Source: Alphaproteobacteria bacterium
GTDB lineage: Bacteria; Pseudomonadota; Alphaproteobacteria; UBA6615
Assembly (NCBI GenBank): GCA_965261585.1
Contig: CBDHDN010000078.1
Span: 5,640 to 69,639 of the forward strand
Direction of reading: 5' to 3'
DNA length: 64,000 bases
Shown: piece by piece, positions 6,435-44,431 of the stretch
How the letters are laid out: each line of letters starts with the position of its first letter
Numbering within the stretch: position 1 is the stretch's first letter
Notes under the pieces: model-generated
Told to the model about the DNA's origin: nothing
The model's database searches: none
The model's input: the letters and a program-made list of their open reading frames with translations, nothing else
Made by a program: the position numbers and the translations under genes

Positions 6435-6444
6435 GTGCACTGAC

Positions 6445-7491: not shown

Positions 7492-7587
7492 CGGCTCCTA
7501 CAATCACACAGACTTCCTGAGCCATGATCGCAGAATCGCACGATCACATGCCTTTGTGAATCATATGTCTGCGTCAGTCCACTAGCG

Positions 7588-10038: not shown

Positions 10039-10084
10039 CTGCGGGTCCCCAAGCGACGAACGCGAGCAACAGTGAACCCGGACA

Positions 10085-11430: not shown

Positions 11431-11466
11431 CGGGATGGCGCCGATTCCATGCAAGTGCGAAACGCT

Positions 11467-11950: not shown

Positions 11951-12439
11951 TTATTCCGTCGTCCCGGCGAGGCGGTCCGCCCGACGCAAGTCGCACGCCC
12001 GCGTCCGCACGGCTCCGAGCGTTCGGCCCAGGTGCAGCGCGACCGCTGGCCAGGTGCCCAGAGGCACGCGCTCGCCTGGCGCAGCCATGTGGTCTCGAAT
12101 CACGTGGTCCTCGGCCTCGGTCCATAACCCTATTTGAGTCCACAGTCCCTCGATCCCCTGCCGCTGCCGCAGGTGATGATAGCGATCGACGGCCGCCCTG
12201 TAGCTTTTGCCGAACCTCTTTGCGACGTCGGCGAGACCGCCCGGCGCTTTTCCGTAAACCCGTTGGTCGTGGCGAGTGATTGGACAGTTCAAAAGCGCAA
12301 CATCCATTTCCGCGGTCCAGCGCGAAAAGGCGGCATGGAGCGGGTCACCATGCCGGTGCGCCCGCATCCCGTGCATGCCGCACCAGACGCGGTTTGTCGC
12401 CCGCCGCTTGCACCACTTGACTGCGCAGACTTTAGCCAC
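11951..12439 (-). CDS. phage-associated DNA-binding protein (Cys/His cluster plus Myb/SANT-like repeats)
   Basis: 162 aa with an N-terminal C..C..C.H.H cluster (CAVKWCKRRATNRVWCGMHGMRAHRHGD) and two W-T-x-E-x-D type repeats. Its 5' end overlaps the portal gene's stop by 8 nt. Confidence 0.4.
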   Translation of the reverse strand: MAKVCAVKWCKRRATNRVWCGMHGMRAHRHGDPLHAAFSRWTAEMDVALLNCPITRHDQRVYGKAPGGLADVAKRFGKSYRAAVDRYHHLRQRQGIEGLWTQIGLWTEAEDHVIRDHMAAPGERVPLGTWPAVALHLGRTLGAVRTRACDLRRADRLAGTTE

Positions 12440-13490
12440 TGTCGAGGTTCACGGCCTCAAGCGCGGTCGCCGTCGGCACGCCCGCTTGGGCGAGCTTGGC
12501 AACCACCGTTGCGCGGCTCACCATGTCGAGCGCGTAGCTGTCGAATTTCAGCGTGACCGGCGTTTCGAGCTTCATGGACAGTTCATGTTCGACCAGCCGC
12601 GCGAGCGGTAAGACGGTGTTGAGGTGCCATCGGCGCACCGCTTCGCGCGGGCTGGTGCCGTCCGCGTCCGTGAACAGGGGTGGTGGAATGCCGCACGCGG
12701 CCAGCACGCGAGCAAAAGCCGCGTCGGCCATGCGCACCATCGACTCGGGCGGCATCGGCCCCAGGCGGCTCGACTGCCAATCACGTTGCGGCGCAGCCGT
12801 GCGGCCTTCGCCCCAACCGGCGGCGCTCGTTTCAACGAGAAGCGCCTTGCCGCGTGCGCCCGCGATGTCGGCCTTGAGCATCTTGAGCGGGTCGGAGTCG
12901 GAGTCGTCACCGCCATCTTGAGGAATAGCGAGTAGTTGCGCGAGCGGTCCTTGCGCCTCATCGGCAAGCGATCGCTCCGCTTCCGATTGCAGCCGCGCCG
13001 TGGTGTGCGCCCAGCTCAAAGGCCCGATCCCGACATAGGGCTGGCCCGGAGTCGAACCCCAACGCACGAACACCACGCCGGACGCCGGCAGGTTCCAGGT
13101 CGTGCTTGTCGAAGGGCCGTAGCAGGTCGCGCGAACGGTCCACGAGTCCGGGTCGTGCGAACCTTCCCAGTGCCAGGATGATGCAGGTATCAGCCGCACC
13201 ATGCCGTCAACACCCATCCTTATGACGTGCATCGAATCGCCCGACCGGATCAAGTCGCGCCCCACTTGCGCCAGGACGCACGGCGTCACGGCTTCCTGCG
13301 CCCAGGGCGCCGCGTCTACCTCCGCGCTCGCAAAGGCTCGTGACAGCGCACCGCTGGCCGCCTCGACGGCCGCCGTGCTGGAAGCATCGGCCGCCGTCCC
13401 GGCCGCTTGCGCCTCGATCAGCCGGACCACGGCATCGGAGAAGTCGCCGCCCGAGTCCCGGTGCTCGCGTTTTTGCCACGGCCACCGCAT
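12432..13490 (-). CDS. phage portal protein (HK97-like family)
   Basis: 352 aa with portal-like composition. It lies in a head-morphogenesis block with the protease, capsid and connector genes. Confidence 0.65.
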   Translation of the reverse strand: MRWPWQKREHRDSGGDFSDAVVRLIEAQAAGTAADASSTAAVEAASGALSRAFASAEVDAAPWAQEAVTPCVLAQVGRDLIRSGDSMHVIRMGVDGMVRLIPASSWHWEGSHDPDSWTVRATCYGPSTSTTWNLPASGVVFVRWGSTPGQPYVGIGPLSWAHTTARLQSEAERSLADEAQGPLAQLLAIPQDGGDDSDSDPLKMLKADIAGARGKALLVETSAAGWGEGRTAAPQRDWQSSRLGPMPPESMVRMADAAFARVLAACGIPPPLFTDADGTSPREAVRRWHLNTVLPLARLVEHELSMKLETPVTLKFDSYALDMVSRATVVAKLAQAGVPTATALEAVNLDSG

Positions 13491-13492
13491 CG

Positions 13493-13939
13493 CTAATTCT
13501 CGAACAGTATTTCAGCGCGGCAATGGCTACCAGGCCACGTCCGCGCGCTCACGACAACGTAGGTATCGCCGGCAAACATGATGTTATCTGCCGGGCTTGT
13601 TTGTAACGGCAATTCGTTGTCTTCCTCGACGCCAGCTTGCCCGGACCAGGTCAAAGGCGTCCCGCCCCACAGCAGGGTTGAGCCGGCCCACGTCAACGCC
13701 TCACTCACGCCAGCCGCGCGGCGAAGGCCGCCCGGCACGAAAACGATCATTTTTTGACTGCGAATCGGGCCGCCTTCGCCGTCGCGATCTTCCGTTCCGA
13801 CGGGTTGAACGCTCGCCGGAAGCGCATCGCGGTCAATACCGCTTTCTTGCCACTCGCCGTATTGGTCGAAGCCGACGACGCGCGGGCGCAACCTGACTAC
13901 CGTGTCCGTAAATCTCCTCAAGTGCGGTCGCCTGGTCAT
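13493..13939 (-). CDS. phage head-tail adaptor / head-closure-like protein
   Basis: 148 aa. The call rests on position, with translational coupling between the connector and portal genes; the sequence call itself is weak. Confidence 0.35.
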   Translation of the reverse strand: MTRRPHLRRFTDTVVRLRPRVVGFDQYGEWQESGIDRDALPASVQPVGTEDRDGEGGPIRSQKMIVFVPGGLRRAAGVSEALTWAGSTLLWGGTPLTWSGQAGVEEDNELPLQTSPADNIMFAGDTYVVVSARTWPGSHCRAEILFEN

Positions 13940-14250
13940 CCGATTGCACCCGCGCGGCGCGCTTTCCAGGACGTCAAAAGCGACATGGCGCCGCTATGCC
14001 TTAGCGCGCTCACGTTTCCCGGCGCCCATTGCGTTTCAACGTCGCCGATTCGGTCGGAACGCTGCGCGCTTTCCGGTTGTTGCGACAGGTAGCCGCACAC
14101 GCGGATCGCGGCTTCATTCTGCACGCCCACGGGCGCGTCCGGCGCGTAGCGTTCGACAAGCGCCGAGGCCACAGGCAACAGCCGGGCAGCTTGCGCGGCC
14201 GTGACCGCCACGGCCTCAGCTAGTGCCGCCGCAGTGAGCGTTACAGCCAC
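13936..14250 (-). CDS. phage gp6-like head-tail connector protein
   Basis: 104 aa, Ala-rich and helical (LAEAVAVTAAQAARLL...ERYAPDAP). It overlaps its neighbours by 4 and 10 nt. Confidence 0.45.
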   Translation of the reverse strand: MAVTLTAAALAEAVAVTAAQAARLLPVASALVERYAPDAPVGVQNEAAIRVCGYLSQQPESAQRSDRIGDVETQWAPGNVSALRHSGAMSLLTSWKARRAGAIG

Positions 14251-14819
14251 AGGCGCCGCCTCCGCGTCGGCCCCCGGCAGAAGTGTTCGGCGCGCAGGTC
14301 AACCACCGCGTCCGGGTAGGCGGGTGCCGTCACGACAGAGAATTCCCGCAAGACGGCTTCCCGGATCACGCGAACCTGGACTCCGGGATTCCCCGGCTCC
14401 GGCTCCAGGCGCTCCGCGTCCGGGACAGCCGACGCGGGCGGCACCACGAAACCCGGAGACAAACCGACCATGAGTCCGGCGGCAATGGACTTCTCCGCGT
14501 CAACCACCCATGACGGCGGATCGTCGGGAAGCCTTGCCTCGAAGTTCACAGCGTCGTCGCCGTCCGCGATTGAGAGCGTTCCGGCCTTGCGGCTGGCGAT
14601 CGGCTTGCCGAAGTCGTGACCGACCAGAATGTCGAGCTGGCGCGTCTCGTCCTCGATTGCGAAGCGGAAGGCGCGAGGCTCAAAGCGCTCCTTGCGGACG
14701 CGGCCACGATCGCGGACCGTCGCCGTGCTGCCGTAGTTGAACCGCCCGGTCAGGATTCTCATGCCGCCGGAACGGCGTATTTCCAGCTTAGATGCCTCGA
14801 AAATAGGAAATTCGGCCAT
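14241..14819 (-). CDS. HK97-family prohead protease
   Basis: 192 aa. Typical S78 prohead protease blocks are present: FEPRAF, LVGHD and the GLSPGF region. Confidence 0.7.
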   Translation of the reverse strand: MAEFPIFEASKLEIRRSGGMRILTGRFNYGSTATVRDRGRVRKERFEPRAFRFAIEDETRQLDILVGHDFGKPIASRKAGTLSIADGDDAVNFEARLPDDPPSWVVDAEKSIAAGLMVGLSPGFVVPPASAVPDAERLEPEPGNPGVQVRVIREAVLREFSVVTAPAYPDAVVDLRAEHFCRGPTRRRRLWL

Positions 14820-15584
14820 CGTCCATCACGCTACCTGGAACGCGGCTTGTGCATAGGCGTTCGGTTGCACAACGATCACGTCGCCAAGCAGAACGTGCAT
14901 CGTGAAGTACCGCTCGCCCTGCGCGCTGCCGCTGTAAATGTCGTCGATGTCGATGATATTCCAGTGCGGGCAAACCGCCGTGCGCATCGCGCCAGCGCCG
15001 CCCATCATCGACCGGCCCATGCGGTACAGGATGGCTTGCTGCACGTTGTCCACGCTCATGAACGTCGCCGGGTCCGGCATCCGCGTGTTTGTCGTCCATG
15101 CGCCGTACATCGCCATGGCGTAGTCGGCGAACGCCTTGTCGCCACGGCCGCCCGCCGTGCCGGACGCGGGATCGCGGAACGTCCGGGCGCTCAAGCGGTA
15201 GGATTCCACGCCGGCCACGATCGTGACATCCTTGACGGTGTTCGCCCAAAGCCCGTCAACGCCGCCGGCGAAGGCCGCGACGAAATCATCGAACGTCGCG
15301 ACGGCCGACGGCGCCGTCGTCGGATCGGCAAGCGCCTGAAAGATACCGGCCAGATTCGGCGCGGTCCCGTTGCCGTTGATCGCTTGATCGTCGAGTTGGT
15401 CGGACAACGCTAGCGACAGGTTTTCGCGAAGGATCGACTCGAAGTTGTCTTGTCCGACCGCCGCGATATCCTCAAGCGTCAATTCGAGACGGGCGGAAAT
15501 CCGCTTCGGAGTGGCGGTTGTCACCGTGATCGCGCCAGCGTTCCCCACCGCCGCCGCGCTCTTGGCGCGCGCGCTCGCGGTCTG

Positions 15585-17503
15585 GTGCGCCAGGCGAACT
15601 GGCAGAAGGTAGGGGGTGCAAGTCCCCCGGAACGAAGGAGTAACCGAACCACGTTTCTCCGCGAGCCGTGCGTTGGCTCCCGTGAGGGGGCAGGCGAAGC
15701 GTCGGTAGCGGCATGGATGGGCAGGGCTATTGAGCACCGTAAAAGCGATGGTCCGGGGTGCCGAGGCTTTCAGATCGGTCGAAGGCAATATTGCAGGCGT
15801 CGTTTTGGTGAGATGTCGGCGAGCCCCGCGGTGTCAGAGAACCCATGCACGTTCGCACGCCTTCTGTTGGGACCCTGGGAGGTCTTCAAACTGCCCCGGT
15901 TGTCGTAAAGGGGCCGCGTAGGGAATGGAGAAAACCGAAGCCTATGATGAACGGTTTGAAGAAGTCGGATGAGGCCGTACGACCTGTGAGGGCGGCGAAC
16001 AAGGGAGCGCGAGCTTCTGCGGAGTCGCCGGAGGAAAGGGCCTCAACCAAGGGGAATCCGGATTGCCAAAGCACGCGCCGAACCCAGTGTCGGGTAAGCG
16101 TGCCACAGGCGGCGGCCCGGATACGGAAAGCTGCAGAGAGAAACCCGAAGGAACGTCTCACTGCGCTCTTCCACCACATTACGCCGGACGCGCTCGGTGC
16201 GGCCTACTTCGCATTGAAGAAGGACGCAGCAGCCGGTATCGACGGCGTTACGTGGGACATGTACGGCGAGGGTCTGGATGAGCGCCTGCTCGACCTGCAC
16301 CGGCGCCTGCACAGAGGGGGAGCGTACCGGGCGCCACCGGTTCGGCGGGTAGAGGTACCCAAGCCGGACGGGGGGACACGACCGCTCGGGATCGCGGCGC
16401 TGGAGGACAAGGTCGTCCAGAAGGCGGTTGTGGATGTGATCCTGACACCGATCTACGAGGTGGTGTTTCTGGGCTTCAGCTACGGGTTCCGACCGGGGCG
16501 GGGGGCGCACGATGCGCTCGATGCCCTGGCCTTCGGGATAGAACGGCGCAAGGTCAGCTGGATAGTCGATGCAGACCTCCGGGCGTACTTCGACACGATC
16601 CCGCGGGATTGGTTGATCACGTTCCTAGAGCACCGCATCGGAGACAGGCGGGTCATCCGTCTGATCCGGAAATGGCTGAACGCCGGCGTCATAGAGAGTG
16701 GGTCATGGGCAGATACGGGTATGGGCACGCCGCAGGGGGCAATAGTCTCCCCCGTCTTGGCGAACGTGTTCCTGCATTACGTGCTCGACGTGTGGTTCCA
16801 CAAGAAATGGCGCCCGAACGTCCCGGATGGCGAAGCGATCATCGTCCGTTACGCTGACGATATCGTTGTCGGGTTCCAACACAAGCGGGATGCGGAGCGG
16901 TACCTCCGCGACGTTCGGGAGAGGCTGGCCCGGTTCGGTCTCAGCCTCCACCAGGACAAGACCCGCCTCGTGGAGTTTGGCCGGTTCGCGGATTTGAACC
17001 GGCGCCAGCGCGGGGTGGGCAAGCCGGAGACTTTCGACTTTCTGGGCCTCACGCACTATTGCACGACGACCCTGAGAGGACGCTTTCGGCTTGGTCGCAA
17101 ACCGGTTGCCAAACGGGTCAACAGGACCCTGGCGCGCATCGACGAGGTGCTTCGCAAGCGCTGGCACCACGACATCTGGGAAGTTGGTAGGTGGCTGGGG
17201 AGAGTCTGCAATGGCTGGCTCAACTACTTTGCCGTCCCAGGGTCAGGCCGGTTCATCCGTGCGTTCCTCCGCAGGCTGCAACGCCGGTGGATGCGGGCGC
17301 TACGCCGCCGGTCCCAGCGAGCCCGATTTAGTTGGAAGCGACTGGAGCGCATGACCGAAATCCTGTGGCCACGCGCCTCCATCCGCCACCCATGGCCGGA
17401 CCAGCGGTTCGCCGTCAAGCACCCGAGGTAGGAGCCGGATGGTTCAACGACCACGTCCGGATCTGCGCGGGGGGTGCGCAGCAATGCGCATTCCTACCGT
17501 AAC
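15585..17503 (+). mobile_element. group II intron, copy 1 (1919 bp)
   Basis: The 5' end is GTGCGCC and the 3' end is ..CTACCGTAAC. A domain-V-like hairpin with an AGC triad (GAGCCGGATGG..CCACGTCCGGATC) lies after the RT ORF. It has the same length as copies 2 and 3, with only a few SNPs. Confidence 0.85.
15845..17431 (+). CDS. group II intron reverse transcriptase/maturase (no obvious En domain)
   Basis: RT blocks are present (RPLGIAALEDKVVQ, FGFRPGRGAHDAL, YADDIVV) with a C-terminal maturase X region. The real start is probably MMNGLKK at 15944. Confidence 0.9.
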   Translation: MHVRTPSVGTLGGLQTAPVVVKGPRREWRKPKPMMNGLKKSDEAVRPVRAANKGARASAESPEERASTKGNPDCQSTRRTQCRVSVPQAAARIRKAAERNPKERLTALFHHITPDALGAAYFALKKDAAAGIDGVTWDMYGEGLDERLLDLHRRLHRGGAYRAPPVRRVEVPKPDGGTRPLGIAALEDKVVQKAVVDVILTPIYEVVFLGFSYGFRPGRGAHDALDALAFGIERRKVSWIVDADLRAYFDTIPRDWLITFLEHRIGDRRVIRLIRKWLNAGVIESGSWADTGMGTPQGAIVSPVLANVFLHYVLDVWFHKKWRPNVPDGEAIIVRYADDIVVGFQHKRDAERYLRDVRERLARFGLSLHQDKTRLVEFGRFADLNRRQRGVGKPETFDFLGLTHYCTTTLRGRFRLGRKPVAKRVNRTLARIDEVLRKRWHHDIWEVGRWLGRVCNGWLNYFAVPGSGRFIRAFLRRLQRRWMRALRRRSQRARFSWKRLERMTEILWPRASIRHPWPDQRFAVKHPR

Positions 17504-18205
17504 CGAAGTGGTGATCGTGCCGCTTGCGAACGTGCCCGACATCACGCGCGGCATCTCGATCCCCAGGCGCGGCGCGATGCTGTTGGCGAACACGGCCGGC
17601 CGGATCGGATCGAGATTTACGCCGATCGTTCCGGGCGCTGGCGTGATCGCGCGGGTCTCGCGTCCGTCTTCCGCGCTACGCCGTTCCGGTTGCGCCACGT
17701 CCCACAATTCGAGCGGAATCCGGTGGCCGCTGATACCAGCCGCCGACTGCAATTCCGCCTCCGCGCCATTGGCCATCCGGCCTCGCGCCGCGTTCATGAG
17801 ATAGTTTGTCAGCATCGCCTTGGAGCGCAGCTCGATCCGCTCGCGTTGCTCGGCGTCCGGCTCGTTTACGGCGCGGGTTTCGGCTTCGCGTTCCTCAGTT
17901 TCCAAAGCGACGGTCGCGGCGCGGGTCTGTCTTTCCAGGTCCGGCGTCCCGCGCTCGATCGTGTCGAGTTCGGCGCGTTGTTCGTCGGTGAGCTCGTCGA
18001 CCAGGGAAAGCTCCGCCATGTGTCAACGGCGGAGTAAAACCCGGCCATGTGGCGGAGCAAAAGTGGGCCACTTTGGTTCGGTGAGGAGCTTGTCCCCGTA
18101 GTCCACGGGAGGGACCCACGCGCGGCGTGGACGGCCCCTCAGCAGGCAAAGGCCGCGGCGCGCGTGGGAGGGGCCTGTGGGCCCACGGGGGCAAGCGGAT
18201 GCCGC

Positions 18206-18973
18206 TCAGGCGCTTTTTGCGGGTTTCTGTTTTCTTCGGCTCTGCTTGAGGCGGAAGCTTTCGCCGTTCATTTCCAGGATATGGACGTGGTGGGTCAGGC
18301 GGTCCAGCAACGCCCCTGTCAGGCGTTCTGAGCCGAAAACCTCCGTCCACTCGTCGAATGGCAGGTTGGAGGTCACCAGGATCGAGCCACGCTCGTAGCG
18401 CTGGCTGAACACCTCGAACAGCAACTCGGCGCCGGTCTTGGAGAGCGGCACGAAACCCAGCTCGTCGATGATGAGGAGCTTGAGGTTGGCGAGCTTCTTC
18501 TGGAACCTCAGCAGCTGTCTGTCATCGCGCGCCTCCATGAGCTCGTGGACCAGGGCGGCGGCGGTGGTAAAGCCGACCGACAGGCCCTTCTGGCAGGCGG
18601 CAAGGCCGAGGCCGAGCGCAATGTGACTCTTGCCGGTGCCGGAATTGCCCAGAGCGATCACATTCTCCCGGCGCTCGATGTACTCGCATCGTGCCAGCTC
18701 GAGGACCAGCGCCTTGTTGAGCGAGGCGATCGCTTTGAAGTCAAAGCTGTCCAAGCTCTTGACGGTCGGGAACTTCGCTTGCCTGATTCGCCGCTCGACC
18801 ATGCGGCGCTCGCGGTCGATCAGTTCCAGCTCGGCCAGGCGGAGCAGGTAGCGCACGTGGTCGGCGCCCTCGCTGGCACACTGGCGAGCCAGCTTGTCGT
18901 ACTCCCTGAGGAAGGTCGGCAGCTTGAGGGCCTTCAGGTGATGGGCCAGCAACACCTGCGGCGTGTCGCTCAC
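18206..18973 (-). CDS. istB: IS21-family helper ATPase IstB
   Basis: Walker A GNSGTGKSH and Walker B LLIIDELG are present. The GTG start overlaps the istA stop (GTGA). Confidence 0.9.
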   Translation of the reverse strand: MSDTPQVLLAHHLKALKLPTFLREYDKLARQCASEGADHVRYLLRLAELELIDRERRMVERRIRQAKFPTVKSLDSFDFKAIASLNKALVLELARCEYIERRENVIALGNSGTGKSHIALGLGLAACQKGLSVGFTTAAALVHELMEARDDRQLLRFQKKLANLKLLIIDELGFVPLSKTGAELLFEVFSQRYERGSILVTSNLPFDEWTEVFGSERLTGALLDRLTHHVHILEMNGESFRLKQSRRKQKPAKSA

Positions 18974-20484
18974 GGCGCCGCTCCGCCCAGCAGGCTCATG
19001 TAGCTGGCGGCGGATGTGGTGGTCACCTGGGCCCGCGGCAGATAGGGATAAACGTTCAAGTCGAGCCGGGGGGGTCGACGCTCGACGCGACACAGCACCA
19101 GGTGCTTGACCGCATCATAGCCGATGGCGCCTAACCGCAGGGCATCGCGGATGGCACCGTGCACCTCCTCAAGGGCAAAGGTCTCCAGAAGACGGAGCAC
19201 TTGCACGTACTCCCGCTTGCCGGCCTTGCCCATGCGGGCTTCAAGCAAGCGGCGCAGGTTGGCGTACGCCTCGGGCAGCTTCCAACCGGCCAGCGGGGCG
19301 GCTTGATCGAGGGCACCGATCTTCCGCTCCAGCAAGGCCAGATAGTGGATCGGCTCGAAGATCAGGTCCTCTCGTTCGTAAGAGCGTGGGTGCCGGGCGA
19401 TGACCTCGGCGGCGCAGCCGATGACCACCTCGTGCACGTAGCCACGGACCCAGACCTCTTGGTGACCGTAGGCGACGGGCACCGAGTAGTCGTTGCCCCG
19501 ATAGCGCACCAGGGAGAGCGAATTGACCCGCGTGCCCTCCTTGTCGCAGGCCTCGAAAGGCGCCGGCGGCAATTCCATCAGCTTCTCCCGGTCGCATCCG
19601 AACCGCTCGCCGATGGTCTCGCGATGGCCGCGCAAGACGTCGCTTTCCCGTCTCCGACATTGATGTTCCAGGTGAGCGTTGAAGGCGTCCCAGCTCGCAA
19701 ACCGGGGGATGGGAACCATGAAGTTCCGGCGGGCGTAACCGACCAGCCCCTCCACCTTGCCCTTATCATTGCCCTTGCCGGGGCGGCCATATCGATCCTG
19801 GAACAGATAATGGGATTGAAGCCCGCTGAACGCTCGCGTTCGTTGCCGCGTGCCGTCCGGCAGGATGCGCGACACCAGGCACTTGTCATTGTCGTAGAGA
19901 ATCGATTGGGGAATGCCGCCGAAGAAGGCGAAGGCCCCGTTGTGGCCGTCCAGCCAGGCCTCCGTCGCCGCCGCCGGGTAGGCCGCAACGAAGCAGGCAT
20001 CGCTGTGGGGAAGGTCCATGGCGAAAAAATGCGCCCGCCGCTTGACGCCGGCGATGATCGCATCCGCCTCGCCAAAGTCCGCCTGAGCGTGACCCGGAGG
20101 GTGCGCCAGCGGCACGAACATCTCACGCTGGCGACGGCGCCGTTCCCGGACGTAATCCTTGACGATGGTCTGTTTGCCCGCAAAGCCATGCTCGTCGCGA
20201 AGACGCTCGAATATCCGCTTCGCCGTGTGGCGCTGCTTGCAGTGAACCGTTCGGTCCTCTTCCAGAATACGGTCAATGATATCCCTGAAGGGGTCCAGCT
20301 TCGGGCGCTTCGGTGGCTGGCGGCGGCGGTAGCCAGGCGGCTCCGAGTGCCCGAGCATCTTCCTCACCGTCTCTCGCGCTATGCCAAACCGACTCGCCGC
20401 CTCTCGCTGACTCAGCCCATCAACATGGCACGCCAGCCGAACGCGTAGATAAAGGTCCACGGTATACATCCTCCCACCTTCCAT
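18970..20484 (-). CDS. istA: IS21-family transposase IstA
   Basis: 504 aa with an HTH followed by an rve/DDE core (HAQADFGE, YDNDKC, GKGNDKGKVEG). Confidence 0.9.
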   Translation of the reverse strand: MEGGRMYTVDLYLRVRLACHVDGLSQREAASRFGIARETVRKMLGHSEPPGYRRRQPPKRPKLDPFRDIIDRILEEDRTVHCKQRHTAKRIFERLRDEHGFAGKQTIVKDYVRERRRRQREMFVPLAHPPGHAQADFGEADAIIAGVKRRAHFFAMDLPHSDACFVAAYPAAATEAWLDGHNGAFAFFGGIPQSILYDNDKCLVSRILPDGTRQRTRAFSGLQSHYLFQDRYGRPGKGNDKGKVEGLVGYARRNFMVPIPRFASWDAFNAHLEHQCRRRESDVLRGHRETIGERFGCDREKLMELPPAPFEACDKEGTRVNSLSLVRYRGNDYSVPVAYGHQEVWVRGYVHEVVIGCAAEVIARHPRSYEREDLIFEPIHYLALLERKIGALDQAAPLAGWKLPEAYANLRRLLEARMGKAGKREYVQVLRLLETFALEEVHGAIRDALRLGAIGYDAVKHLVLCRVERRPPRLDLNVYPYLPRAQVTTTSAASYMSLLGGAAP

Positions 20485-20574
20485 CCCGAAAAGGATCGAA
20501 GGCTACAGGTGGCAGAGTTTCACTCCGCCCGCAGCCGGGCAAATCTCGCCGCTTCCGTGGTCTAATTTGTCACC

Positions 20575-20675: not shown

Positions 20676-20805
20676 AACATCGCGACGCCGCGGCCTATAA
20701 TTATCAACCAGGTGAGCCAGAGCCTCCGTTATTCTAGGCCCCAGCCTGTCTCAAATCATCTGACGACGGACAATACGGGCATGATTCACATAGGCAGATA
20801 CGAGC

Positions 20806-23445
20806 ATGATTCAGCAACTCCTTTTTGACAAGATCGACCAACGGGTAGCACTAGACAAAGAGGACGGCGACTACGCCTATTTTCATGCGCTGTCCCTAAA
20901 GCTGGAGTTCCTCACGAAGATTGTTACTTCCGGTGTGGTCGCGTGTGTTGGTGAAGACGTCGATCGGTACCGATATTCTCTTGAGCACAAGCTTGTTCGA
21001 GCAGATTCGCTCGGCGAGTTGATAGAGGCACTCAATTCGGCGCTGATTGGCCCACCAGCTCAATTTCTTGACTCTGACGCGCATATCGTCTCAAGGGATC
21101 TGACAGTACGAGTCGATCCGGGTGATTGGCGACACTCAGCTGTAACCGACTTACATCAAGCGGCAGCGGCGGTCGGCGCGGAGGCGATGCTGGGTGAGAA
21201 AGTGGCTCTAAGGCAGTTTTTCGAAATCGCCGTGCAGCTGCGGAACAGAAGCCGTGGTCATGGAGCGCCCACGAGTGAACAATGCAGTAAGTCTTGTACG
21301 TACTTGTCTAGTGCCCTAACCATCTTGGAACAGAACCTCAAATTTTTTCGCCTTCCATGGGTTTACTTGCACCGAAATTTGTCAAGCAAGTACCGTGTGT
21401 CATCACTTCTGAACAACTCTTCATCATTCGACTACCTCAAGAGGAGCCGTGACGTACGGCTGCCAGATGGCGTTTTTTTCAGCCTGAACGACCAGGAAGA
21501 TACAGCACGTCCCGTGCATGTCCCTCTGATCTTCAGCGACGCTGACGTACTCGATGTTGCCCTTCCCAATGGTAACCATAAGGCAAGCACCTTCGAAACT
21601 ATCTCGTACGTGACGAACGAAGTCCAACGACGAGACGGATCGGCATGGTCAAGTCCACCTGCTCGCCTCCCCAAGAGCGAGACCGAAGGCGAGGCAGTGC
21701 TTGAGATTCAGGGCAATTTATTCACGAATGCACCCAAGAAACCCTTTGGCTACGTTCAACGGATTGATCTAGAAAACCGTCTACGCGAGGAGCTTCTCAA
21801 ATCAGATCAGCACCCAATAATTTCACTTACAGGTCCCGGAGGCATCGGTAAGACTACCATTGCAATCGCAGCAATACAGCGAATCTCTGACCGAGAGCCT
21901 GTACCCTATCAGGTAATCCTATGGATCAGCGCCCGAGACATTGATCTACTTGATTCGGGTCCCAAACCAGTATCACAAAAGGTGTTTACGCAGCGAGATA
22001 TTGCGCATGCCGCGATTGATTTGGTGGAACCATCTGAAAAGTCGTCAAACGATTTTGAGCCGGACATATATTTTCAAAAGTGTCTCGCACACGGCGCAGC
22101 AGGAACCACTTTGTTCGTTCTCGACAATTTCGAGACTGTGGAGAACCCAGCGGATGTTTTCAGCTGGATTGACTCTCACATCAGGCTTCCGAACAAGATC
22201 CTAATCACAACTCGATTTCGGGATTTTGTGGGCGACTACCCAATTGATATTCGCGGAATGTCCGATGACGAAGCAGACAAGCTAATCGATCAACATGCCT
22301 CTCGCCTCAATATAGAGAAATTGTTGAGCATCTCGTACCAAGAGGAACTAATTCGAGAATCTGATCGACATCGATACGTCATAAAGATTCTCCTCTGTCA
22401 GGTTTCTAAAGATGGAAACGCCGGAAAACCAAAACGATTTGTCGCAACTTCTGATCGTCTACTTGACGCTCTTTTCAAGAGGACCTTTTCTTCTCTAAGT
22501 CCCGCTGGTCAACGCGTTTTTCTTCTGCTTTGCAGTTGGAGAGTTGTCGTTCCAGAAGTGGCTGTCGAAGCTGTGTCGCTTCGGCCTAGCACCGAACGGT
22601 TTGACGTGGCAGCGGCCTTGGACGAATTGCGTCTATTTTCTCTTGTCGACCAGATCGTCTCCGAAGAGGAGCGGTCCACGTTTGTGGGTGTGCCATTGGT
22701 GGCGGCGATGTACGGTCGGCGGGAGTTGGAGGTGAGTCCGTTCAAGGTTGCAGTCGAAGAAGACCGAAAGCTCTTGATGGAGTTCGGCGCCGGAAAACGA
22801 AGTGACACTCAGCGGGGAGTTCTACCACGAATTGATAACCTCATTCGGGCTGTCGCGAAACGAGCGAGCAGCAGCCCGACGGACCTTGAAGAGGCCCTTC
22901 CAGTACTGGAATACCTGGCAACTAGGTTTCCGATGGCGTATCCCACACTCGCCAAGTTAGTGAGGGAAGTAGACGACTCCGATCAATCGATCGATCGGGC
23001 GAAGGGGTACATGGAGAACTTTTTGCAGACTGCGGCAATCCCGGCTCGACTGGATGCGTGGCAGGAACTCGCGTACCTCCGTCGATTGAGCAAGGACCCG
23101 ATGGGAGAGGTTCACGCGCTCTGCGAGGCGGCGCTGCTTTCCGCGTCGGATCGGGAGAAGCTCAGCTCGTTCGCGAATCAACTGAATAATCGCATTCGAG
23201 ACCTGAAAGAGCAAAGTGTCGGAGATGGTTGGCACGAAGGTGTGCGCGAGCTCCTAGCTAAAGTCATCGAAGTAATGCAGAAACAAATCAAGGGTCTGTC
23301 GGCTACCGATTGTTCTCGACTCGCCTGGCTTCTCCTCAACATTGGCAATTCGGAACGGGCGCTCGACGTGGCCAAAACCGGAATTCAACGAGAGTCGAGC
23401 AATGAATACTGCCAAAGGCTGATTTTAAAGCTGGAATCCCACTGA
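20806..23445 (+). CDS. NB-ARC-type STAND NTPase with an unknown ~330-aa N-terminal domain and a C-terminal helical-repeat region (candidate antiviral NLR/Avs-like protein)
   Basis: Walker A is LTGPGGIGKTTIA (about nt 21826-21864), Walker B is TLFVLDNFE, and NB-ARC-like KILITTRFRD and MSDDEADKL are present. The gene is visibly more AT-rich than its flanks and is bracketed by IS remnants. Confidence 0.75.
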   Translation: MIQQLLFDKIDQRVALDKEDGDYAYFHALSLKLEFLTKIVTSGVVACVGEDVDRYRYSLEHKLVRADSLGELIEALNSALIGPPAQFLDSDAHIVSRDLTVRVDPGDWRHSAVTDLHQAAAAVGAEAMLGEKVALRQFFEIAVQLRNRSRGHGAPTSEQCSKSCTYLSSALTILEQNLKFFRLPWVYLHRNLSSKYRVSSLLNNSSSFDYLKRSRDVRLPDGVFFSLNDQEDTARPVHVPLIFSDADVLDVALPNGNHKASTFETISYVTNEVQRRDGSAWSSPPARLPKSETEGEAVLEIQGNLFTNAPKKPFGYVQRIDLENRLREELLKSDQHPIISLTGPGGIGKTTIAIAAIQRISDREPVPYQVILWISARDIDLLDSGPKPVSQKVFTQRDIAHAAIDLVEPSEKSSNDFEPDIYFQKCLAHGAAGTTLFVLDNFETVENPADVFSWIDSHIRLPNKILITTRFRDFVGDYPIDIRGMSDDEADKLIDQHASRLNIEKLLSISYQEELIRESDRHRYVIKILLCQVSKDGNAGKPKRFVATSDRLLDALFKRTFSSLSPAGQRVFLLLCSWRVVVPEVAVEAVSLRPSTERFDVAAALDELRLFSLVDQIVSEEERSTFVGVPLVAAMYGRRELEVSPFKVAVEEDRKLLMEFGAGKRSDTQRGVLPRIDNLIRAVAKRASSSPTDLEEALPVLEYLATRFPMAYPTLAKLVREVDDSDQSIDRAKGYMENFLQTAAIPARLDAWQELAYLRRLSKDPMGEVHALCEAALLSASDREKLSSFANQLNNRIRDLKEQSVGDGWHEGVRELLAKVIEVMQKQIKGLSATDCSRLAWLLLNIGNSERALDVAKTGIQRESSNEYCQRLILKLESH

Positions 23446-23529
23446 CGCAAAGAATCACCAAACAACGGGTTACGGTGTATCCGGCGTACCAGACGGCGGG
23501 AACCTCACCATCAAAACCGGCCATTGACC

Positions 23530-23660
23530 TTCCCCCCGTTTTGTGCCCATTTATGAGTTCGCTCTGTTCGTGGTTTGGTCCATTCGGACCGGGTTGCGAA
23601 CTCGTATGGGGTGAGCCCCTCGAGGCTCGTTTGAGGACGGTTCAGATTATAGTCGATGTC
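23530..23660 (-). pseudogene. C-terminal fragment of an IS3-type (rve) transposase
   Basis: Translates to DIDYNLNRPQTSLEGLTPYEFATRS, the typical extreme C-terminus of IS3-family OrfB. Confidence 0.4.
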
Positions 23661-23920
23661 TGACGTCAGCGCCTTTGGGACAAATTGAGGTAATTGCATA
23701 ACGGGGGATTTCTGGCTCATCGTAGTGACCAAAGGGAACGAAGATGAGACAGAAATCAATGAGCAAGAACGACCCGGCGGAGAAAACGGTTCGGGATATT
23801 CGGCGCAAGACACGCAAGCAGTATACGGCTGAGGAGAAGATCCGGATCGTGGTGTCGGGCCTGCGCGGCGAGGAGAGCATCGCCGCCTTGTGCCGCCGCG
23901 AGGGCATCGCCGAGGGTCTG

Positions 23921-25839
23921 GTGCGCCAGGCGAACTGACAGAAGGTAGGGGGTGCAAGTCCCCCGGAACGAAGGAGTAACCGAACCACGTTTCTCCGCGA
24001 GCCGTGCGTTGGCTCCCGTGAGGGGGCAGGCGAAGCGTCGGTAGCGGCATGGATGGGCAGGGCTATTGAGCACCGTAAAAGCGATGGTCCGGGGTGCCGA
24101 GGCTTTCAGATCGGTCGAAGGCAATATTGCAGGCGTCGTTTTGGTGAGATGTCGGCGAGCCCCGCGGTGTCAGAGAACCCATGCACGTTCGCACGCCTTC
24201 TGTTGGGACCCTGGGAGGTCTTCAAACTGCCCCGGTTGTCGTAAAGGGGCCGCGTAGGGAATGGAGAAAACCGAAGCCTATGATGAACGGTTTGAAGAAG
24301 TCGGATGAGGCCGTACGACCTGTGAGGGCGGCGAACAAGGGAGCGCGAGCTTCTGCGGAGTCGCCGGAGGAAAGGGCCTCAACCAAGGGGAATCCGGATT
24401 GCCAAAGCACGCGCCGAACCCAGTGTCGGGTGAGCGTGCCACAGGCGGCGGCCCGGATACGGAAAGCTGCAGAGAGAAACCCGAAGGAACGTCTCACTGC
24501 GCTCTTCCACCACATTACGCCGGACGCGCTCGGTGCGGCCTACTTCGCATTGAAGAAGGACGCAGCAGCCGGTGTCGACGGCGTTACGTGGGACATGTAC
24601 GGCGAGGGTCTGGATGAGCGCCTGCTCGACCTGCACCGGCGCCTGCACAGAGGGGGAGCGTACCGGGCGCCACCGGTTCGGCGGGTAGAGGTACCCAAGC
24701 CGGACGGGGGGACACGACCGCTCGGGATCGCGGCGCTGGAGGACAAGGTCGTCCAGAAGGCGGTTGTGGATGTGATCCTGACACCGATCTACGAGGTGGT
24801 GTTTCTTGGCTTCAGCTACGGGTTCCGACCGGGGCGGGGGGCGCACGATGCGCTCGATGCCCTGGCCTTCGGGATAGAACGGCGCAAGGTCAGCTGGATA
24901 GTCGATGCAGACCTCCGGGCGTACTTCGACACGATCCCGCGGGATTGGTTGATCACGTTCCTAGAGCACCGCATCGGAGACAGGCGGGTCATCCGTCTGA
25001 TCCGGAAATGGCTGAACGCCGGCGTCATAGAGAGTGGGTCATGGGCAGATACGGGTATGGGCACGCCGCAGGGGGCAATAGTCTCCCCCGTCTTGGCGAA
25101 CGTGTTCCTGCATTACGTGCTCGACGTGTGGTTCCACAAGAAATGGCGCCCGAACGTCCCGGATGGCGAAGCGATCATCGTCCGTTACGCTGACGATATC
25201 GTTGTCGGGTTCCAACACAAGCGGGATGCGGAGCGGTACCTCCGCGACGTTCGGGAGAGGCTGGCCCGGTTCGGTCTCAGCCTCCACCAGGACAAGACCC
25301 GCCTCGTGGAGTTTGGCCGGTTCGCGGATTTGAACCGGCGCCAGCGCGGGGTGGGCAAGCCGGAGACTTTCGACTTTCTGGGCCTCACGCACTATTGCAC
25401 GACGACCCTGAGAGGACGCTTTCGGCTTGGTCGCAAACCGGTTGCCAAACGGGTCAACAGGACCCTGGCGCGCATCGACGAGGTGCTTCGCAAGCGCTGG
25501 CACCACGACATCTGGGAAGTTGGTAGGTGGCTGGGGCGAGTCTGCAATGGCTGGCTCAACTACTTTGCCGTCCCAGGGTCAGGCCGGTTCATCCGTGCGT
25601 TCCTCCGCAGGCTGCAACGCCGGTGGATGCGGGCGCTACGCCGCCGGTCCCAGCGAGCCCGATTTAGTTGGAAGCGATTGGAGCGCATGACCGAAATCCT
25701 GTGGCCACGCGCCTCCATCCGCCACCCATGGCCGGACCAGCGGTTCGCCGTCAAGCACCCGAGGTAGGAGCCGGATGGTTCAACGACCACGTCCGGATCT
25801 GCGCGGGGGGTGCGCAGCAATGCGCATTCCTACCGTAAC
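23921..25839 (+). mobile_element. group II intron, copy 2 (1919 bp)
   Basis: Same ends and length as copy 1. It is inserted between GGTCTG and TATTAC of IS3 orfA, in the same orientation as the host gene. Confidence 0.85.
24181..25767 (+). CDS. group II intron reverse transcriptase/maturase
   Basis: 528-codon ORF that differs from copy 1 by one residue (I to V in AAG[I/V]DGVTW). Confidence 0.9.
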   Translation: MHVRTPSVGTLGGLQTAPVVVKGPRREWRKPKPMMNGLKKSDEAVRPVRAANKGARASAESPEERASTKGNPDCQSTRRTQCRVSVPQAAARIRKAAERNPKERLTALFHHITPDALGAAYFALKKDAAAGVDGVTWDMYGEGLDERLLDLHRRLHRGGAYRAPPVRRVEVPKPDGGTRPLGIAALEDKVVQKAVVDVILTPIYEVVFLGFSYGFRPGRGAHDALDALAFGIERRKVSWIVDADLRAYFDTIPRDWLITFLEHRIGDRRVIRLIRKWLNAGVIESGSWADTGMGTPQGAIVSPVLANVFLHYVLDVWFHKKWRPNVPDGEAIIVRYADDIVVGFQHKRDAERYLRDVRERLARFGLSLHQDKTRLVEFGRFADLNRRQRGVGKPETFDFLGLTHYCTTTLRGRFRLGRKPVAKRVNRTLARIDEVLRKRWHHDIWEVGRWLGRVCNGWLNYFAVPGSGRFIRAFLRRLQRRWMRALRRRSQRARFSWKRLERMTEILWPRASIRHPWPDQRFAVKHPR

Positions 25840-26097
25840 TATTACAGCTGATCGAAAGAGTTTTTGGAAGCGGGCAAGAAGCGGCTCGCCGGCGACACCG
25901 GGCGCCAAGCGACCTCGGGCGAGGTTAAAGGCCTGCGCCAGGAGATGCGCGACTTGAAGGAGTTGGTCGCCGAACTTTCGCTGGAGAACCGTCTTTTCAA
26001 CAAAAGCATGATCGGGCATGGGGGAGACGCGGAATGAGGTATCCCGCATCCGAGAAGCTGGAGATCATCCGCCTGGTCGAGCAGTTGAGAACGGCGA

Positions 26098-26222
26098 TGA
26101 CAAATTAGTCCACGGAAGCGGCGGGATTTCCCAGCCGCGGGCGGAGTAAAACTCTGCCACCTGTAGCCTTCGATCTTTTTTGAGATGGAAGGCGGGAGGA
26201 TGTACACCGTGGACCTATATCT
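26098..26222 (+). mobile_element. 5'-terminal fragment of a second IS21-family element
   Basis: TGACAAATTAGTCCACGGAAGCGGCGG...ATGGAAGGCGGGAGGATGTACACCGTGGACCTATATCTG closely matches the istA-proximal end of the IS21 at 20450-20572. Similarity stops after about 13 istA codons. Confidence 0.7.
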
Positions 26223-26889: not shown

Positions 26890-27726
26890 GGTACGGCCTA
26901 TAACGGCCATTTCGGCTGCACCTGCTATCACCCGCTTTTCGTGTTCAATCAGTTCGGCGATCTGGAGCGGTGCGGCCTTCGTCCCGGCAACGTGCACAGC
27001 GCCCACGAGTGGCGCGATGTGTTGGAACCGGTGGTCGCTCGTTACCGCAACAGGACACTCCGGCGCTACTTCCGTGGCGACGCCGCCTTTGCCTCACCCG
27101 AAGTCTACGAGTTTCTCGAAGCCGAGGACTTCAGCTACGCCATCCGGCTCCCCGCAAACAAGGTGCTGCAAGGCAGCATCGCCCATCTGCTGAAACGCCC
27201 CGTCGGCAGGCCGCCCAATGATGTTCGCCGGTATCATGCCGGCTTCAGCTATCAGGCCGCGACCTGGGACAAACCCCGCCGCGTCGTCGCCAAGGTCGAG
27301 TGGCATCCTGGTGAGTTGTACCCGCGCGTCGGGTTAATTGTAACCAACCTGAGCCGACCCACCGAGCGGGTCGTCGCATTCTACAATCAGCGCGGCACGG
27401 CCGAGCAATGGATCAAGGAAGGCAAGAACGCGATCAAGTGGACACGCCTGTCGTGCCGCAAGTTCCGTCACAACGCCGTCCGGCTCCAACTCCACGCGCT
27501 CGCCTATAATCTCGGCAACTTCATGCGGACACTCGTGTTGCCCGTTGCAGTGGAGCAGTGGTCACTGACCACGCTGCGCGAAAAGCTCGTCAAGATCGGC
27601 GCGAAGATCGTCCGCCACGGTCGCTGCATCGTCTTCCAGATGGCCGAGGTCGCTATCCCTCGTGACCTGTTCGCCGACATCCTCCGCCGAATCGATCGGC
27701 TCAGAACGACGCCCCTCCCAACATGA
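26890..27726 (+). pseudogene. 5'-truncated IS1380-family transposase
   Basis: Contains YNGHFGCTCYHPLFVFNQFGDLERCGLRPGNVHSA..., EQWIKEGKNAIKWTRLSC and the C-terminal RIDRLR. A stop sits directly upstream and about 190 N-terminal codons are missing. Confidence 0.75.
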
Positions 27727-27801: not shown

Positions 27802-28607
27802 GGTGCTGTCAACTTAACGAAGGCAGGTCGCAGTTGAACGTCTGAACTGAGCGGCTCAAGCAGCAGCGGTCACGGTCCGCCACGTGTTCATCGCGTCACC
27901 GCGGAATTGGCGCATTGTCTTGCGAGTGATCAGATGACGTTGGACATTGAAGGTGTTGTAGATGGCGGCGTGGGTGGAGAGAAACCTTTGCGCCGATCCT
28001 GATGACTTGAAGCCCTGCATCCTGCGTTCTCGTTGTCGAACCGGCAGGTGCGAATTCTCCGCCCGATTGTTGCTCCGTCCGCCGGTAACGTGTTTCCCCG
28101 TCATGTTGAGATCACGCAATGCTGCCCCGTAAGATGGCAGTTTATCGGTCACCACCTTATTCGGCGCATACCCCTGCTTCTTGAGCAGTTTGCGCATCAG
28201 CTTGAGTGCTGCTTTCTTGTTCCTCCGGGACTGAACCAAGATATCCAGCACCTCACCCTCGCTGTCCACCGCCCGCCATAGATACATCCGTTTTCCGTTG
28301 ATGGAGGAAAACACCTCATCAAGATGCCACCGGTCGTCTGGTCGAGGGCGTGATTGTCTCAGTTTTCGGGCATAGACCTGCCCAAACTTTAAAGACCAGC
28401 GCCGTATCGTCTCGTAAGAAACATCGACACCACGTTCAGCGAGCAGATCCTCCACATCGCGGTAACTGAGCGGAAACCGGAAACACAGCCAGACGGCGCG
28501 CTGGATTATCTCTGCAGGAAACCGATGTCGGCGGTAGCTGATCTTGTTCATAACAGGAAGCTACTCGCCACCCGCAGCTGACACCAGCCAGTTACCGTGA
28601 CAGCACC
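27802..28607 (-). mobile_element. IS6-family insertion sequence (about 806 bp)
   Basis: Terminal inverted repeats are GGTGCTGTCAAC (27802-) and GTGACAGCACC (ending at 28607). The element has a single transposase gene and a size typical of IS6/IS26-like elements. Confidence 0.8.
27856..28551 (-). CDS. IS6-family transposase
   Basis: 231 aa. The signature runs YRRHRFPAEII...WHLDEVF..ING...YLWRAVD...TDKLPSY...NNRAENSH. Confidence 0.9.
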   Translation of the reverse strand: MNKISYRRHRFPAEIIQRAVWLCFRFPLSYRDVEDLLAERGVDVSYETIRRWSLKFGQVYARKLRQSRPRPDDRWHLDEVFSSINGKRMYLWRAVDSEGEVLDILVQSRRNKKAALKLMRKLLKKQGYAPNKVVTDKLPSYGAALRDLNMTGKHVTGGRSNNRAENSHLPVRQRERRMQGFKSSGSAQRFLSTHAAIYNTFNVQRHLITRKTMRQFRGDAMNTWRTVTAAA

Positions 28608-30587: not shown

Positions 30588-30821
30588 ATGAGCAAGGGAC
30601 CCACGACCCACCACGTCGTCCCGAACCCTGACGGGGGCTGGGACGTGAAGCGCGGCGGCGCAAGCCGCGCAAGCAGCCACCACGACACCAAGCAGGACGC
30701 CATCGCTCGCGGTCGGCAGATCAGCCGCAATCAGGGAACTGAGTTCCGCATCCACAACAAGGATGGACGGATCGCCGACAGTGACAGCCACGGCAACGAC
30801 CCGCACCCGCCCAAGGGCTAG
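30588..30821 (+). CDS. DUF2188-like small protein
   Basis: 77 aa (HHVVPNPDGGWDVKRGGASRASSHHDTKQDAIARGRQISRNQGTEFRIHNKDGRI). An AAGGAG RBS is present. It is the first gene of the operon. Confidence 0.6.
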   Translation: MSKGPTTHHVVPNPDGGWDVKRGGASRASSHHDTKQDAIARGRQISRNQGTEFRIHNKDGRIADSDSHGNDPHPPKG

Positions 30822-30840
30822 AAAAGGAGAGCGTCTGCGG

Positions 30841-32358: not shown

Positions 32359-32372
32359 GACCGCATACCATT

Positions 32373-44402: not shown

Positions 44403-44431
44403 GTCGCACGCTTCTACGATAGTGGGTACTA

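Follow-up and report, generated by a model that had tools for sequence, protein, structure and literature searches.

The 64,000-nt window analyzed here (contig CBDHDN010000078.1 of an Alphaproteobacteria bacterium; all coordinates are positions in this stretch, and amino acid numbers refer to the 879-aa protein) carries a single-gene locus encoding a protein of the STAND class (signal transduction ATPases with numerous domains) with an NB-ARC core. Its open reading frame (ORF), complete with an ATG start and 879 codons, occupies 20806..23445 on the forward strand (stop codon included), exactly as stated in the initial annotation, which had been made by reading the sequence alone; of all ORFs in the window, it was the only one matched by the family profile (1216 bits). 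The GC content of the gene (0.516) is ∼10–14 points lower than that of its 5-kb flanks (0.622) and of the whole window (0.653), in agreement with the low GC remarked on earlier. When the closest relative (locus L009) was compared with the window by blastn, the DNA common to both was confined to 20699..23536 (+; 97.2% identity), that is, the gene with 107 bp upstream and 91 bp downstream, beyond which the flanks diverge. Thus, the mobile unit is essentially the gene alone.

The center of the protein is an NB-ARC domain, as had been proposed: Pfam model PF00931 matched aa 324–503 (E = 6.1e-9) with 35.9 bits, exceeding the gathering threshold of 23.5, and a precomputed match to this model exists for most homologs. 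The nucleotide-binding domain (NBD), delimited by Pfam, invariant residues, and Foldseek, spans 21763..22320 (+; aa 320–505). All four NTPase motifs quoted in the initial annotation were located within it, namely Walker A (GPGGIGKTT; aa 343–351, nt 21832–21858), Walker B (LFVLDNFE; aa 436–443, nt 22111–22134), sensor-1/RNBS-B (KILITTRFRD; aa 464–473, nt 22195–22224), and MSDDEADKL (aa 485–493, nt 22258–22284). In a family alignment of 122 sequences reaching down to 30% identity, to which the statements on invariant positions below also refer, G343, G345, G346, G348, K349, T350, D440, N441, E443, T444, T468, and R470 of the NBD are invariant, and so is K464 of the sensor-1 motif. The AlphaFold2 model of the full-length protein, built from the same alignment, was of high confidence (predicted local distance difference test [pLDDT] 93.4; predicted template modeling score [pTM] 0.87). 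Comparison of this model with the PDB using Foldseek returned, with a probability of 1.0, the archaeal STAND protein with tetratricopeptide repeats (TPR) 6mfv (E = 5.6e-10), CED-4 (E = 5e-9), Apaf-1 (E = 5e-8), and ZAR1 (E = 1e-7), and further Dark and, like ZAR1 plant NLRs, NRC, WRR4A, and Roq1 (overall E from 6e-10 to 1e-6), the NOD (nucleotide-binding oligomerization domain) matches spanning 360–650 aligned columns. No Avs structure was among the top 50 PDB matches. The core therefore belongs genuinely to the AP-ATPase/NB-ARC clade and, in structure, does not group with the solved Avs proteins. Scans of the whole protein with NCBIfam and PADLOC gave sub-threshold matches to the NTPase/P-loop region only, and a whole-protein sequence search of PDB chains gave P-loop noise only.

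Behind the NBD, ∼375 aa follow. They begin with the helical ARC1 subdomain (22330..22494, +; aa 509–563; from the AlphaFold2 model and the comparison of alleles), which in the family contains a GxP-type motif (G521-H522-P523-Y524), and continue with a winged-helix subdomain of helices and a β-hairpin (aa 615–628) at 22501..22689 (+; aa 566–628; from the secondary structure of the model and the Foldseek alignment), in which no conserved histidine was found among the invariant and near-invariant columns. The remaining ∼250 aa form 12 helices of TPR-like repeats (22696..23439, +; aa 631–878; AlphaFold2 and Foldseek), presumed to be the sensor. This region was matched by Foldseek to 6mfv and to the TPR of LGN, homologs showed weak TPR matches in Pfam, and it is the least conserved part of the protein (domain conservation 0.46). 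The C-terminal helical repeats of about 400 aa described in the initial annotation are therefore real as repeats and shorter in extent, aa 509–628 being ARC1 and winged helix.

The N-terminal region had been described as unplaceable, and it stayed so: its ∼320 aa had no match in Pfam, NCBIfam, PADLOC, or PDB sequences, and the domain being missing from all libraries searched is in keeping with the earlier notion that the effector may be new. Modeled in isolation (AlphaFold2, 322 aa, family alignment), it was nonetheless predicted with confidence (pLDDT 87; pTM 0.83), as two modules. The first, at 20806..21351 (+; aa 1–182), is all-α, with nine helices and a block pLDDT mostly >90, and is the candidate for a divergent HEPN-like effector. 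The second, at 21358..21735 (+; aa 185–310), is rich in β-structure (∼9 strands), with W185, K195, Y196, G222, D250, N255, G256, S267, and Y268 conserved. It includes a conserved linker, L-P-x-S-E-T-E-G (21667..21690, +; aa 288–295; alignment and AlphaFold2), which is ordered in the full-length model and disordered in the isolated N-terminal one. Invariant in the N-terminal part are G70, R146, N147, H152, G222, G256, and R319, the last marking the start of the NBD; for R13, Y57, and R65, conservation is 90% or more.

Three of these invariant residues belong to the segment for which the initial annotation had speculatively suggested a HEPN-type RNase motif. The R-x5-H segment is present at 21241..21261 (+; alignment and AlphaFold2) as R146-N147-R-S-R-G-H152, with a polar asparagine following the arginine, and R146, N147, and H152 do not vary down to 30% identity. 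A second motif, E34-x3-K38 (E34-F-L-T-K38; 20905..20919, +; alignment and AlphaFold2), lies in the second helix (aa 22–46), and both E34 and K38 are at least 90% conserved. The placement of the motifs relative to HEPN was judged from the order of secondary-structure elements in the model: helix 1 (5–20) and helix 2 (22–46) are followed by an insert (47–135), helix 3 (136–151), and helix 4 (157–177), such that R146-N147 come to lie at the end of helix 136–151, and H152 opens the loop 152–156 that precedes helix 157–177. This order fits the HEPN core, a four-helix up-and-down bundle with an insert after helix 2, in which the two motifs would be spatial neighbors. In HEPN domains, the Rx4-6H motif sits where a helix ends and the next loop begins, and it carries a polar residue (N, D, or H) directly after the arginine, which takes part in catalysis in KEN domains; in many HEPN families, helix 2 contributes another conserved acidic residue, usually within Ex3[KR]; and helices 2 and 3 are often separated by an insert (PMC3710099). 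Four descriptive features of HEPN given there are found in the family. Invariance and position of the motif thus strengthen the suggestion, whereas no established HEPN family or structure was matched with statistical significance by profile or fold. A divergent HEPN-like RNase is therefore put forward for the N-terminal domain as the leading hypothesis, short of assigning the domain to HEPN.

Several observations weigh against a HEPN identity. The spacing between arginine and histidine is five residues, the commonest spacing in HEPN being four, and putative helix 2 is separated from helix 3 by a long insert of ∼90 aa. When 20 diverse N-terminal fragments were scanned with Pfam at E ≤ 10, neither a HEPN family nor any recurrent weak match appeared; a profile of 20 N-terminal sequences run against PDB sequences produced no HEPN and P-loop noise at most. 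Foldseek searches with the N-terminal model found no credible fold in the PDB (best E = 0.11, TM <0.2) and neither HEPN nor anything else credible in BFVD. The weak top matches in these searches (helical bundles, OB regions of RNase R/Ssd1, SH3, and complement MG domains) were dismissed as not credible. An ADP-ribosyltransferase-like R-S-ExE arrangement (R197/S267/E292-x-E294) was likewise discarded: Foldseek found no such fold, and E292 and E294 fall below 90% conservation in the deep alignment.

These results open the way to an explanation in which the defense logic of nucleotide-binding leucine-rich repeat (NLR)-like proteins is kept while the role of the N-terminal domain would fall, in place of a HEPN RNase, to a new-fold effector of other activity (another nuclease, depletion of nucleotides or NAD+, or modification of proteins) or to a non-enzymatic adaptor recruiting a host factor. 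R-N-x4-H and E-x3-K would then serve other chemistry or be structural. A confident model lacking a PDB or BFVD match, the lack of a HEPN profile match, and the two-module build with conserved residues beyond the HEPN-like motifs (G70, W72, W185, K195, Y196, D250, N255, G256, S267, Y268, and the linker) all fit this explanation. The lack of a cis partner gene, which an adaptor would need, fits a self-contained effector. The explanation is somewhat unlikely nevertheless. Of the eight polar residues best conserved in the α-module, five (E34, K38, R146, N147, and H152) make up the two HEPN-defining motifs and occupy the helix positions described for HEPN. Reading the N terminus as the output position, whatever its chemistry, is supported by viral contig L020, on which a distantly related NB-ARC protein has a TIR domain in the same N-terminal slot, followed by NB-ARC and WD40 repeats. 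This gene (L020 ∼9640–11473; IMG/VR) represents an Apaf-1-like architecture with a TIR effector; comparison with TIR chains of the PDB confirmed the TIR domain (best E = 1e-4), and the ORF overruns the contig end.

The family is large and uniform. A genome scan with the single protein returned six loci; a word-indexed search, in which 8000 candidates were scored, yielded 1920 relatives, the best 120 of which are ∼870–885 aa long, 57–95% identical, and collinear over 100% of the query. Full-length collinearity persists down to 30% identity. The N-terminal profile, run against 1.84 billion representatives at 50% identity, identified 654 clusters at E ≤ 1e-3, 294 of them at E ≤ 1e-30. Nearly all full-size proteins among the 150 best matches have the domain at the extreme N terminus of a protein of ∼855–890 aa, and no alternative architecture of the domain was found; among these matches, it is known in one architecture only. 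Two long outlier architectures turned out to be gene-call fusions, and a helix-turn-helix (HTH) domain in P0234 was a transposase-type fusion. Members at ∼60% identity occur in metagenome-assembled genomes (MAGs) of Verrucomicrobiota, Gammaproteobacteria, and Acidobacteriota, others (38% identity) on megaplasmids of Ralstonia solanacearum, and nine full or near-full members on IMG/VR viral contigs, beside Mu-type and portal genes. The collection of isolated-phage genomes contained no homolog. Nearly all members are nameless ("hypothetical protein") and have no protein accession; the family is almost wholly unannotated because it comes mainly from uncultured bacteria. The nearest relatives of the window copy from named taxa, in Bryobacterales and Acidobacteriota MAGs, are incomplete: one copy (L007 10001–12056) is cut to 682 aa at 78% identity, and another (L008 10001–10270) is an 89-aa fragment at 76% identity, which indicates that copies of the family decay.

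The surroundings of the homologs point to mobility. In 57 of 62 loci, the gene had a higher AT content than the DNA on either side (mean GC difference −7.7 points; P = 4e-11), so that the low GC content is a family trait indicative of horizontal mobility. Clustering of 609 neighboring ORFs from 97 loci revealed no conserved partner gene, the commonest neighbors being integrases (nine loci) and HsdM-type methylases (five loci). In two unrelated genomes (L010 5115–7389 and L103 4149–6641), the family gene is preceded by the same series of tyrosine integrase (Arm-DNA-binding), DUF429, and a few small unknown ORFs, which suggests an integrative element as a shared vehicle. Defense genes are frequent nearby: L001 is accompanied by IS21, McrBC, type I restriction-modification, and Abi_C genes, L010 (besides integrase and DUF429) by GIY-YIG, an MvaI/BcnI endonuclease, and a Dcm/Vsr pair, L103 by GmrSD_N, L106 by CRISPR-Cas genes (Cas6/Csc2), BrxR, and GmrSD_C, and L104 by PaREP1 and HicB-like toxin–antitoxin genes. 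A Pfam scan of 405 neighbors found Mu-type phage genes, portals, PIN, CHAT, and UvrD-type helicases among many metabolic genes, and further BrxL (3), AAA_21 (3), SWI2/SNF2, HsdM, and a 4TM effector of the cyclic oligonucleotide-based antiphage signaling system (CBASS). The three BrxL-type ORFs, coding for the Lon-like ATPase of bacteriophage exclusion (BREX) systems, are most likely L094 7426–7938, L095 104–616, and L075 4677–6734; these are homologous to one another. Relative to the family gene, those of L094 and L095 lie 63 bp upstream and that of L075 lies 1.1 kb downstream, which would place the gene at the edge of BREX systems. A bulk PADLOC scan of the neighbors was swamped by redundant GajB/UvrD models and of little informative value.

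Counted conservatively, a recognized defense gene lies within 5 kb of the family gene in ∼11 of 100 loci, on average about half of each 10-kb neighborhood being available for the count. Compared with the null of 1.5% (0.0153) from Lee et al. 2026 (PMC13581612), this corresponds to a binomial P of 4e-7, and to 2e-4 when the null is doubled. The enrichment that the initial annotation had proposed looking for is thus present by a rough test based on Pfam names. At the same time, many loci have housekeeping surroundings; no conserved partner and no match of the N-terminal domain to a non-defense domain were found.

The latter contexts bring up an explanation without immunity: the family could be a signaling or regulatory STAND of the MalT, AfsR/SARP, or GutR type, or a housekeeping ATP-dependent switch, that merely happens to reside on mobile DNA often. 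Its uniform architecture, fairly even conservation over the whole length, and short TPR region would be in line with this, as would the embedding of several loci among metabolic genes and the lack of a PADLOC match; moreover, non-defense STAND clades are interspersed among defense clades (Lee et al. 2026, PMC13581612). Yet a DNA-binding output domain was detected neither in Pfam/NCBIfam scans of the protein nor in Pfam scans of 20 N-terminal fragments, nor was any other output domain in the sense of a regulatory STAND, and there is no conserved neighboring gene or operon that could be its regulon. The patchy distribution across phyla at ∼60% identity, the consistently foreign GC content, flanking integrases and IS elements, copies on viral contigs, enrichment of defense genes nearby, and the existence of truncated and fragmentary copies (L007 and L008) also speak against it, and we consider it improbable.

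HEPN RNases in general need to dimerize in order to form their active site, which fits activation driven by oligomerization. The reading tentatively favored here, at a probability of about 0.45, is that of an NLR-like conflict protein from the AP-ATPase/NB-ARC clade that stands alone and moves horizontally, most likely anti-phage by abortive infection, with a divergent HEPN-like RNase as effector. If it works in the manner of Apaf-1, plant resistosomes, and Avs proteins, the resting protein would be a closed, nucleotide-bound monomer with its N-terminal domain docked on the NTPase. Binding of a trigger (a phage protein or another cue of infection) by the ∼250-aa TPR-like C terminus would lead to nucleotide exchange in the NB-ARC domain and to oligomerization, which would gather the N-terminal domains. 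The α-module, if indeed a highly divergent HEPN-like, metal-independent RNase, would then acquire a composite active site (R146, N147, and H152, aided by E34 and K38) that forms on dimerization only, and the ensuing cleavage of RNA would arrest the cell. Judged by its genomic context, the family is a good, as yet unproven, candidate for an anti-phage function.

Other findings temper this reading. The PADLOC search suggested at the outset gave no defense model matching the protein. The effector is fixed throughout the family, with no swapping of the kind seen in Avs, domain conservation ranges from 0.46 to 0.60 along the whole protein, and the repeat region is short and not hypervariable. Many loci, such as L002 and the Ralstonia copies, have plain housekeeping surroundings; the neighbors on the Ralstonia megaplasmids (GGDEF, an IS3-type transposase, and unknown ORFs) are uninformative. 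The P-values for the enrichment are rough, because Pfam names instead of DefenseFinder were used to recognize defense genes and a few of the loci nearly duplicate one another. Finally, the window allele deviates at four near-invariant positions (W72L, G521R, P523R, and G531C).

It is conceivable that, whatever the function of the family, the copy in the window is a decaying or deliberately attenuated allele in a graveyard of insertion sequences (IS) and introns, its switch no longer working. It differs from its 95%-identical sister (L009/P0001) by 40 amino acids, with a ratio of nonsynonymous to synonymous substitution rates (dN/dS) of 0.44. When the substitutions were polarized against 114 close homologs, considering positions at least 90% conserved, eight were private to the window (W72L, L407V, G521R, P523R, G531C, V540G, A632V, and E825Q) compared with two in the sister. 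Six derived changes (K512Q, G521R, P523R, G531C, V540G, and I545F) are clustered within 34 residues of ARC1 (aa 512–545, nt 22339–22440), and the residues introduced by them were not seen in any close homolog. The GHPY motif (aa 521–524, within nt 22363–22404) reads RHRY, and position 523, arginine in the window allele, is proline in 121 of 121 other aligned sequences. An IS21 lies 230 bp upstream of the gene, native upstream DNA has been kept over 107 bp only, no σ70-like promoter was found upstream of the gene, and a group II intron apparently splits the neighboring capsid region of the phage module. On the other side, the ORF of 879 codons is intact, none of the HEPN-like residues has been lost, nor have Walker A, Walker B, and sensor 1, five deviations from 139 conserved columns are ordinary for the family, and a dN/dS of 0.44 is still <1. 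Loss of the switch is thus possible, with the odds against it. As private changes fall into a conserved NTPase-associated motif, the allele may be attenuated or decaying, and perhaps not fully functional; the ARC1 cluster could stem from relaxed selection or from selected attenuation of a toxic protein.

The IS elements to the left and right of the gene described in the initial annotation were recovered in part. The IS21 on the left is clear (istB, 18206–19093, −; istA, 18970–20484, −), the IS3 on the right is weakly supported (BLASTP against Pfam-labeled IS3-type proteins gave a weak rve-like alignment, E = 0.05), and the IS5-like label was not confirmed. A 96-nt IS21 terminal sequence (left arm, 20447..20542) recurs in inverted orientation as a solo IS21 end (right arm, 26127–26222; 96 nt, 90% complementary), and the two arms bracket the NB-ARC gene, the IS3-like fragment, and a group II intron. 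These inverted ends could be what is left of a second IS21, or they could reflect a composite arrangement. At the sister locus L009, an IS21 is on the opposite side of the gene. The intron to the right of the gene (1.93 kb; 23915–25842, +) is one of three copies (15578–17503, 23915–25842, and 35023–36951, all +) that are 99.6–100% identical, each with an Rfam group-II D1-D4 match (161.7 bits) and an ORF for a reverse transcriptase/maturase of 528 aa. Their near-identity indicates recent retrohoming within the region. Farther to the right follow an IS1380-type fragment (26941–27726) and an IS6 transposase gene (27859–28551). A repeat of 1.15 kb (6432–7585 and 44429–45572; 98.9% identity), each copy of which overlaps an ORF of ∼350 aa, is probably a further insertion sequence.

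A CBASS is encoded 7.3 kb downstream of the NB-ARC gene (30763–33460, +). It comprises a CD-NTase of 531 aa with a SMODS/DncV-like NTase and an AGS-C sensor (30763–32355, +) and a SAVED effector (32702–33460, +; SAVED E = 8e-41), for which the Saf_2TM match is partial only; the short ORF 32373–32726 perhaps represents the detached two-transmembrane part, in which case the effector may be frameshifted. Upstream of the gene, a phage head module (12435–18019, −) comprises portal (12435–13490, −), S78 prohead protease (14244–14819, −), and a capsid-family ORF (14829–15788, −). The capsid region is apparently broken by the first intron copy, inserted antisense, with the 191-aa ORF 17447–18019 as the would-be upstream remainder. 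The module looks like a decaying prophage beside defense genes.

Much of bacterial immunity relies on STAND/NLR-like sensors consisting of a single protein, and those characterized experimentally are mostly of the Avs and bNACHT types, with effectors that are already annotated. The family described here is set apart from these by belonging to the NB-ARC clade of Apaf-1 and plant resistance proteins, by being large and widespread, and by an N-terminal domain that libraries do not recognize. If the HEPN-like reading is true, an RNase output is added to the NB-ARC clade, and HEPN extends to a branch missed by current models; if it is wrong, the N-terminal domain represents a new effector chemistry. 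A more far-reaching interpretation, which we regard as doubtful, is that the N-terminal ∼310 aa are a novel effector (a new fold, or a very divergent HEPN branch with a new β-module) that defines a widespread, unnamed family of bacterial immune receptors of the NB-ARC clade, the closest bacterial counterpart of the Apaf-1 and plant NLR switches, tied to an RNA-degrading death domain. Were it correct, a copy such as that of Ralstonia solanacearum would offer a tractable bacterial model for how NB-ARC oligomerization activates a catalytic effector. In any case, the family is a clean test case, with one gene, a fixed architecture, confident models, residues that lend themselves to point mutation, and a homolog from a plant pathogen that can be cultured.

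Compared with Avs proteins, to which the initial annotation had likened the locus, the tripartite layout stands, given the confident model: effector, STAND NTPase, and a C-terminal α-helical sensor are united in one polypeptide, occurrence in defense islands and horizontal transfer are shared, and trigger-induced oligomerization activating the effector would be the expected mechanism. Membership in Avs1–5, however, does not, as no PADLOC AVAST/Avs model matched; PADLOC-DB v2.0.0, the models of which do not include Avs6–21, gave P-loop-level matches only (GajB, E = 0.007; mad8, E = 0.01). Unlike in Avs, where effectors are swapped, the effector is fixed across the present family, and the region after the NBD (375 aa, repeats ∼250 aa) is below the 400-aa sensor cut-off of Lee et al. 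2026. Newer Avs7–21 and 589 STAND clades were described there, with Avs sensor clusters defined by at least 400 aa after the NTPase (PMC13581612). The family may be one of these 589 clades; its post-NTPase region being <400 aa, it would have been left out of the sensor clustering.

The architecture has precedent in the bacterial HEPN-STAND-TPR(-S1) fusions listed within the Swt1-like HEPN clade (Npun_F6454, MED222_16016, and Desac_1927; Anantharaman et al. 2013, PMC3710099). Common to both are a STAND NTPase with TPR and, ahead of it, an N-terminal domain bearing an Rx4-6H signature, and the prediction of an RNA-targeting conflict system. In contrast to these fusions, the N-terminal domain of the family is matched by no Pfam HEPN model, Swt1-type models included; if it is HEPN, it would be separate and more divergent, with a helical insert of ∼90 aa and an extra β-rich module before the NTPase. 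The proposed juxtaposition of two R-N-x-H motifs by sensor-driven assembly, yielding an active RNase, would resemble, as an analogy, the KEN logic of RNase L and Ire1, in which ligand-induced dimerization or oligomerization activates a HEPN RNase; the switch in the family is an NB-ARC NTPase rather than a pseudokinase. From STAND-TPR regulators (MalT, AfsR/SARP, and GutR), the family is distinguished by having no HTH, OmpR-BTAD, or LuxR domain in Pfam/NCBIfam scans.

The closest likeness is to the AP-ATPase/NB-ARC clade, with which the family shares Walker A, the hhhhDN form of Walker B, the TTR sensor 1, the GxP-type ARC1 motif (changed to RHRY in the window allele), the winged helix, and the order of N-terminal output domain, NOD, and C-terminal repeats. 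It departs from this clade in that the second acidic residue of Walker B is asparagine, with a conserved glutamate three residues after the aspartate (D440-N441-F-E443). An MHD-type histidine, which would contact ADP, was not evident among the invariant and near-invariant columns of the winged helix. Unlike in Apaf-1, CED-4, and plant NLRs, the N-terminal domain is not a CARD, coiled-coil, TIR, or caspase domain; and unlike in Apaf-1 and plant NLRs, the repeats are short and TPR-like instead of WD40 or leucine-rich, in a protein that is bacterial, mobile, and encoded by a single gene. The logic of the system is thus a familiar one; the family is large and unnamed, and its N-terminal domain is unrecognized.

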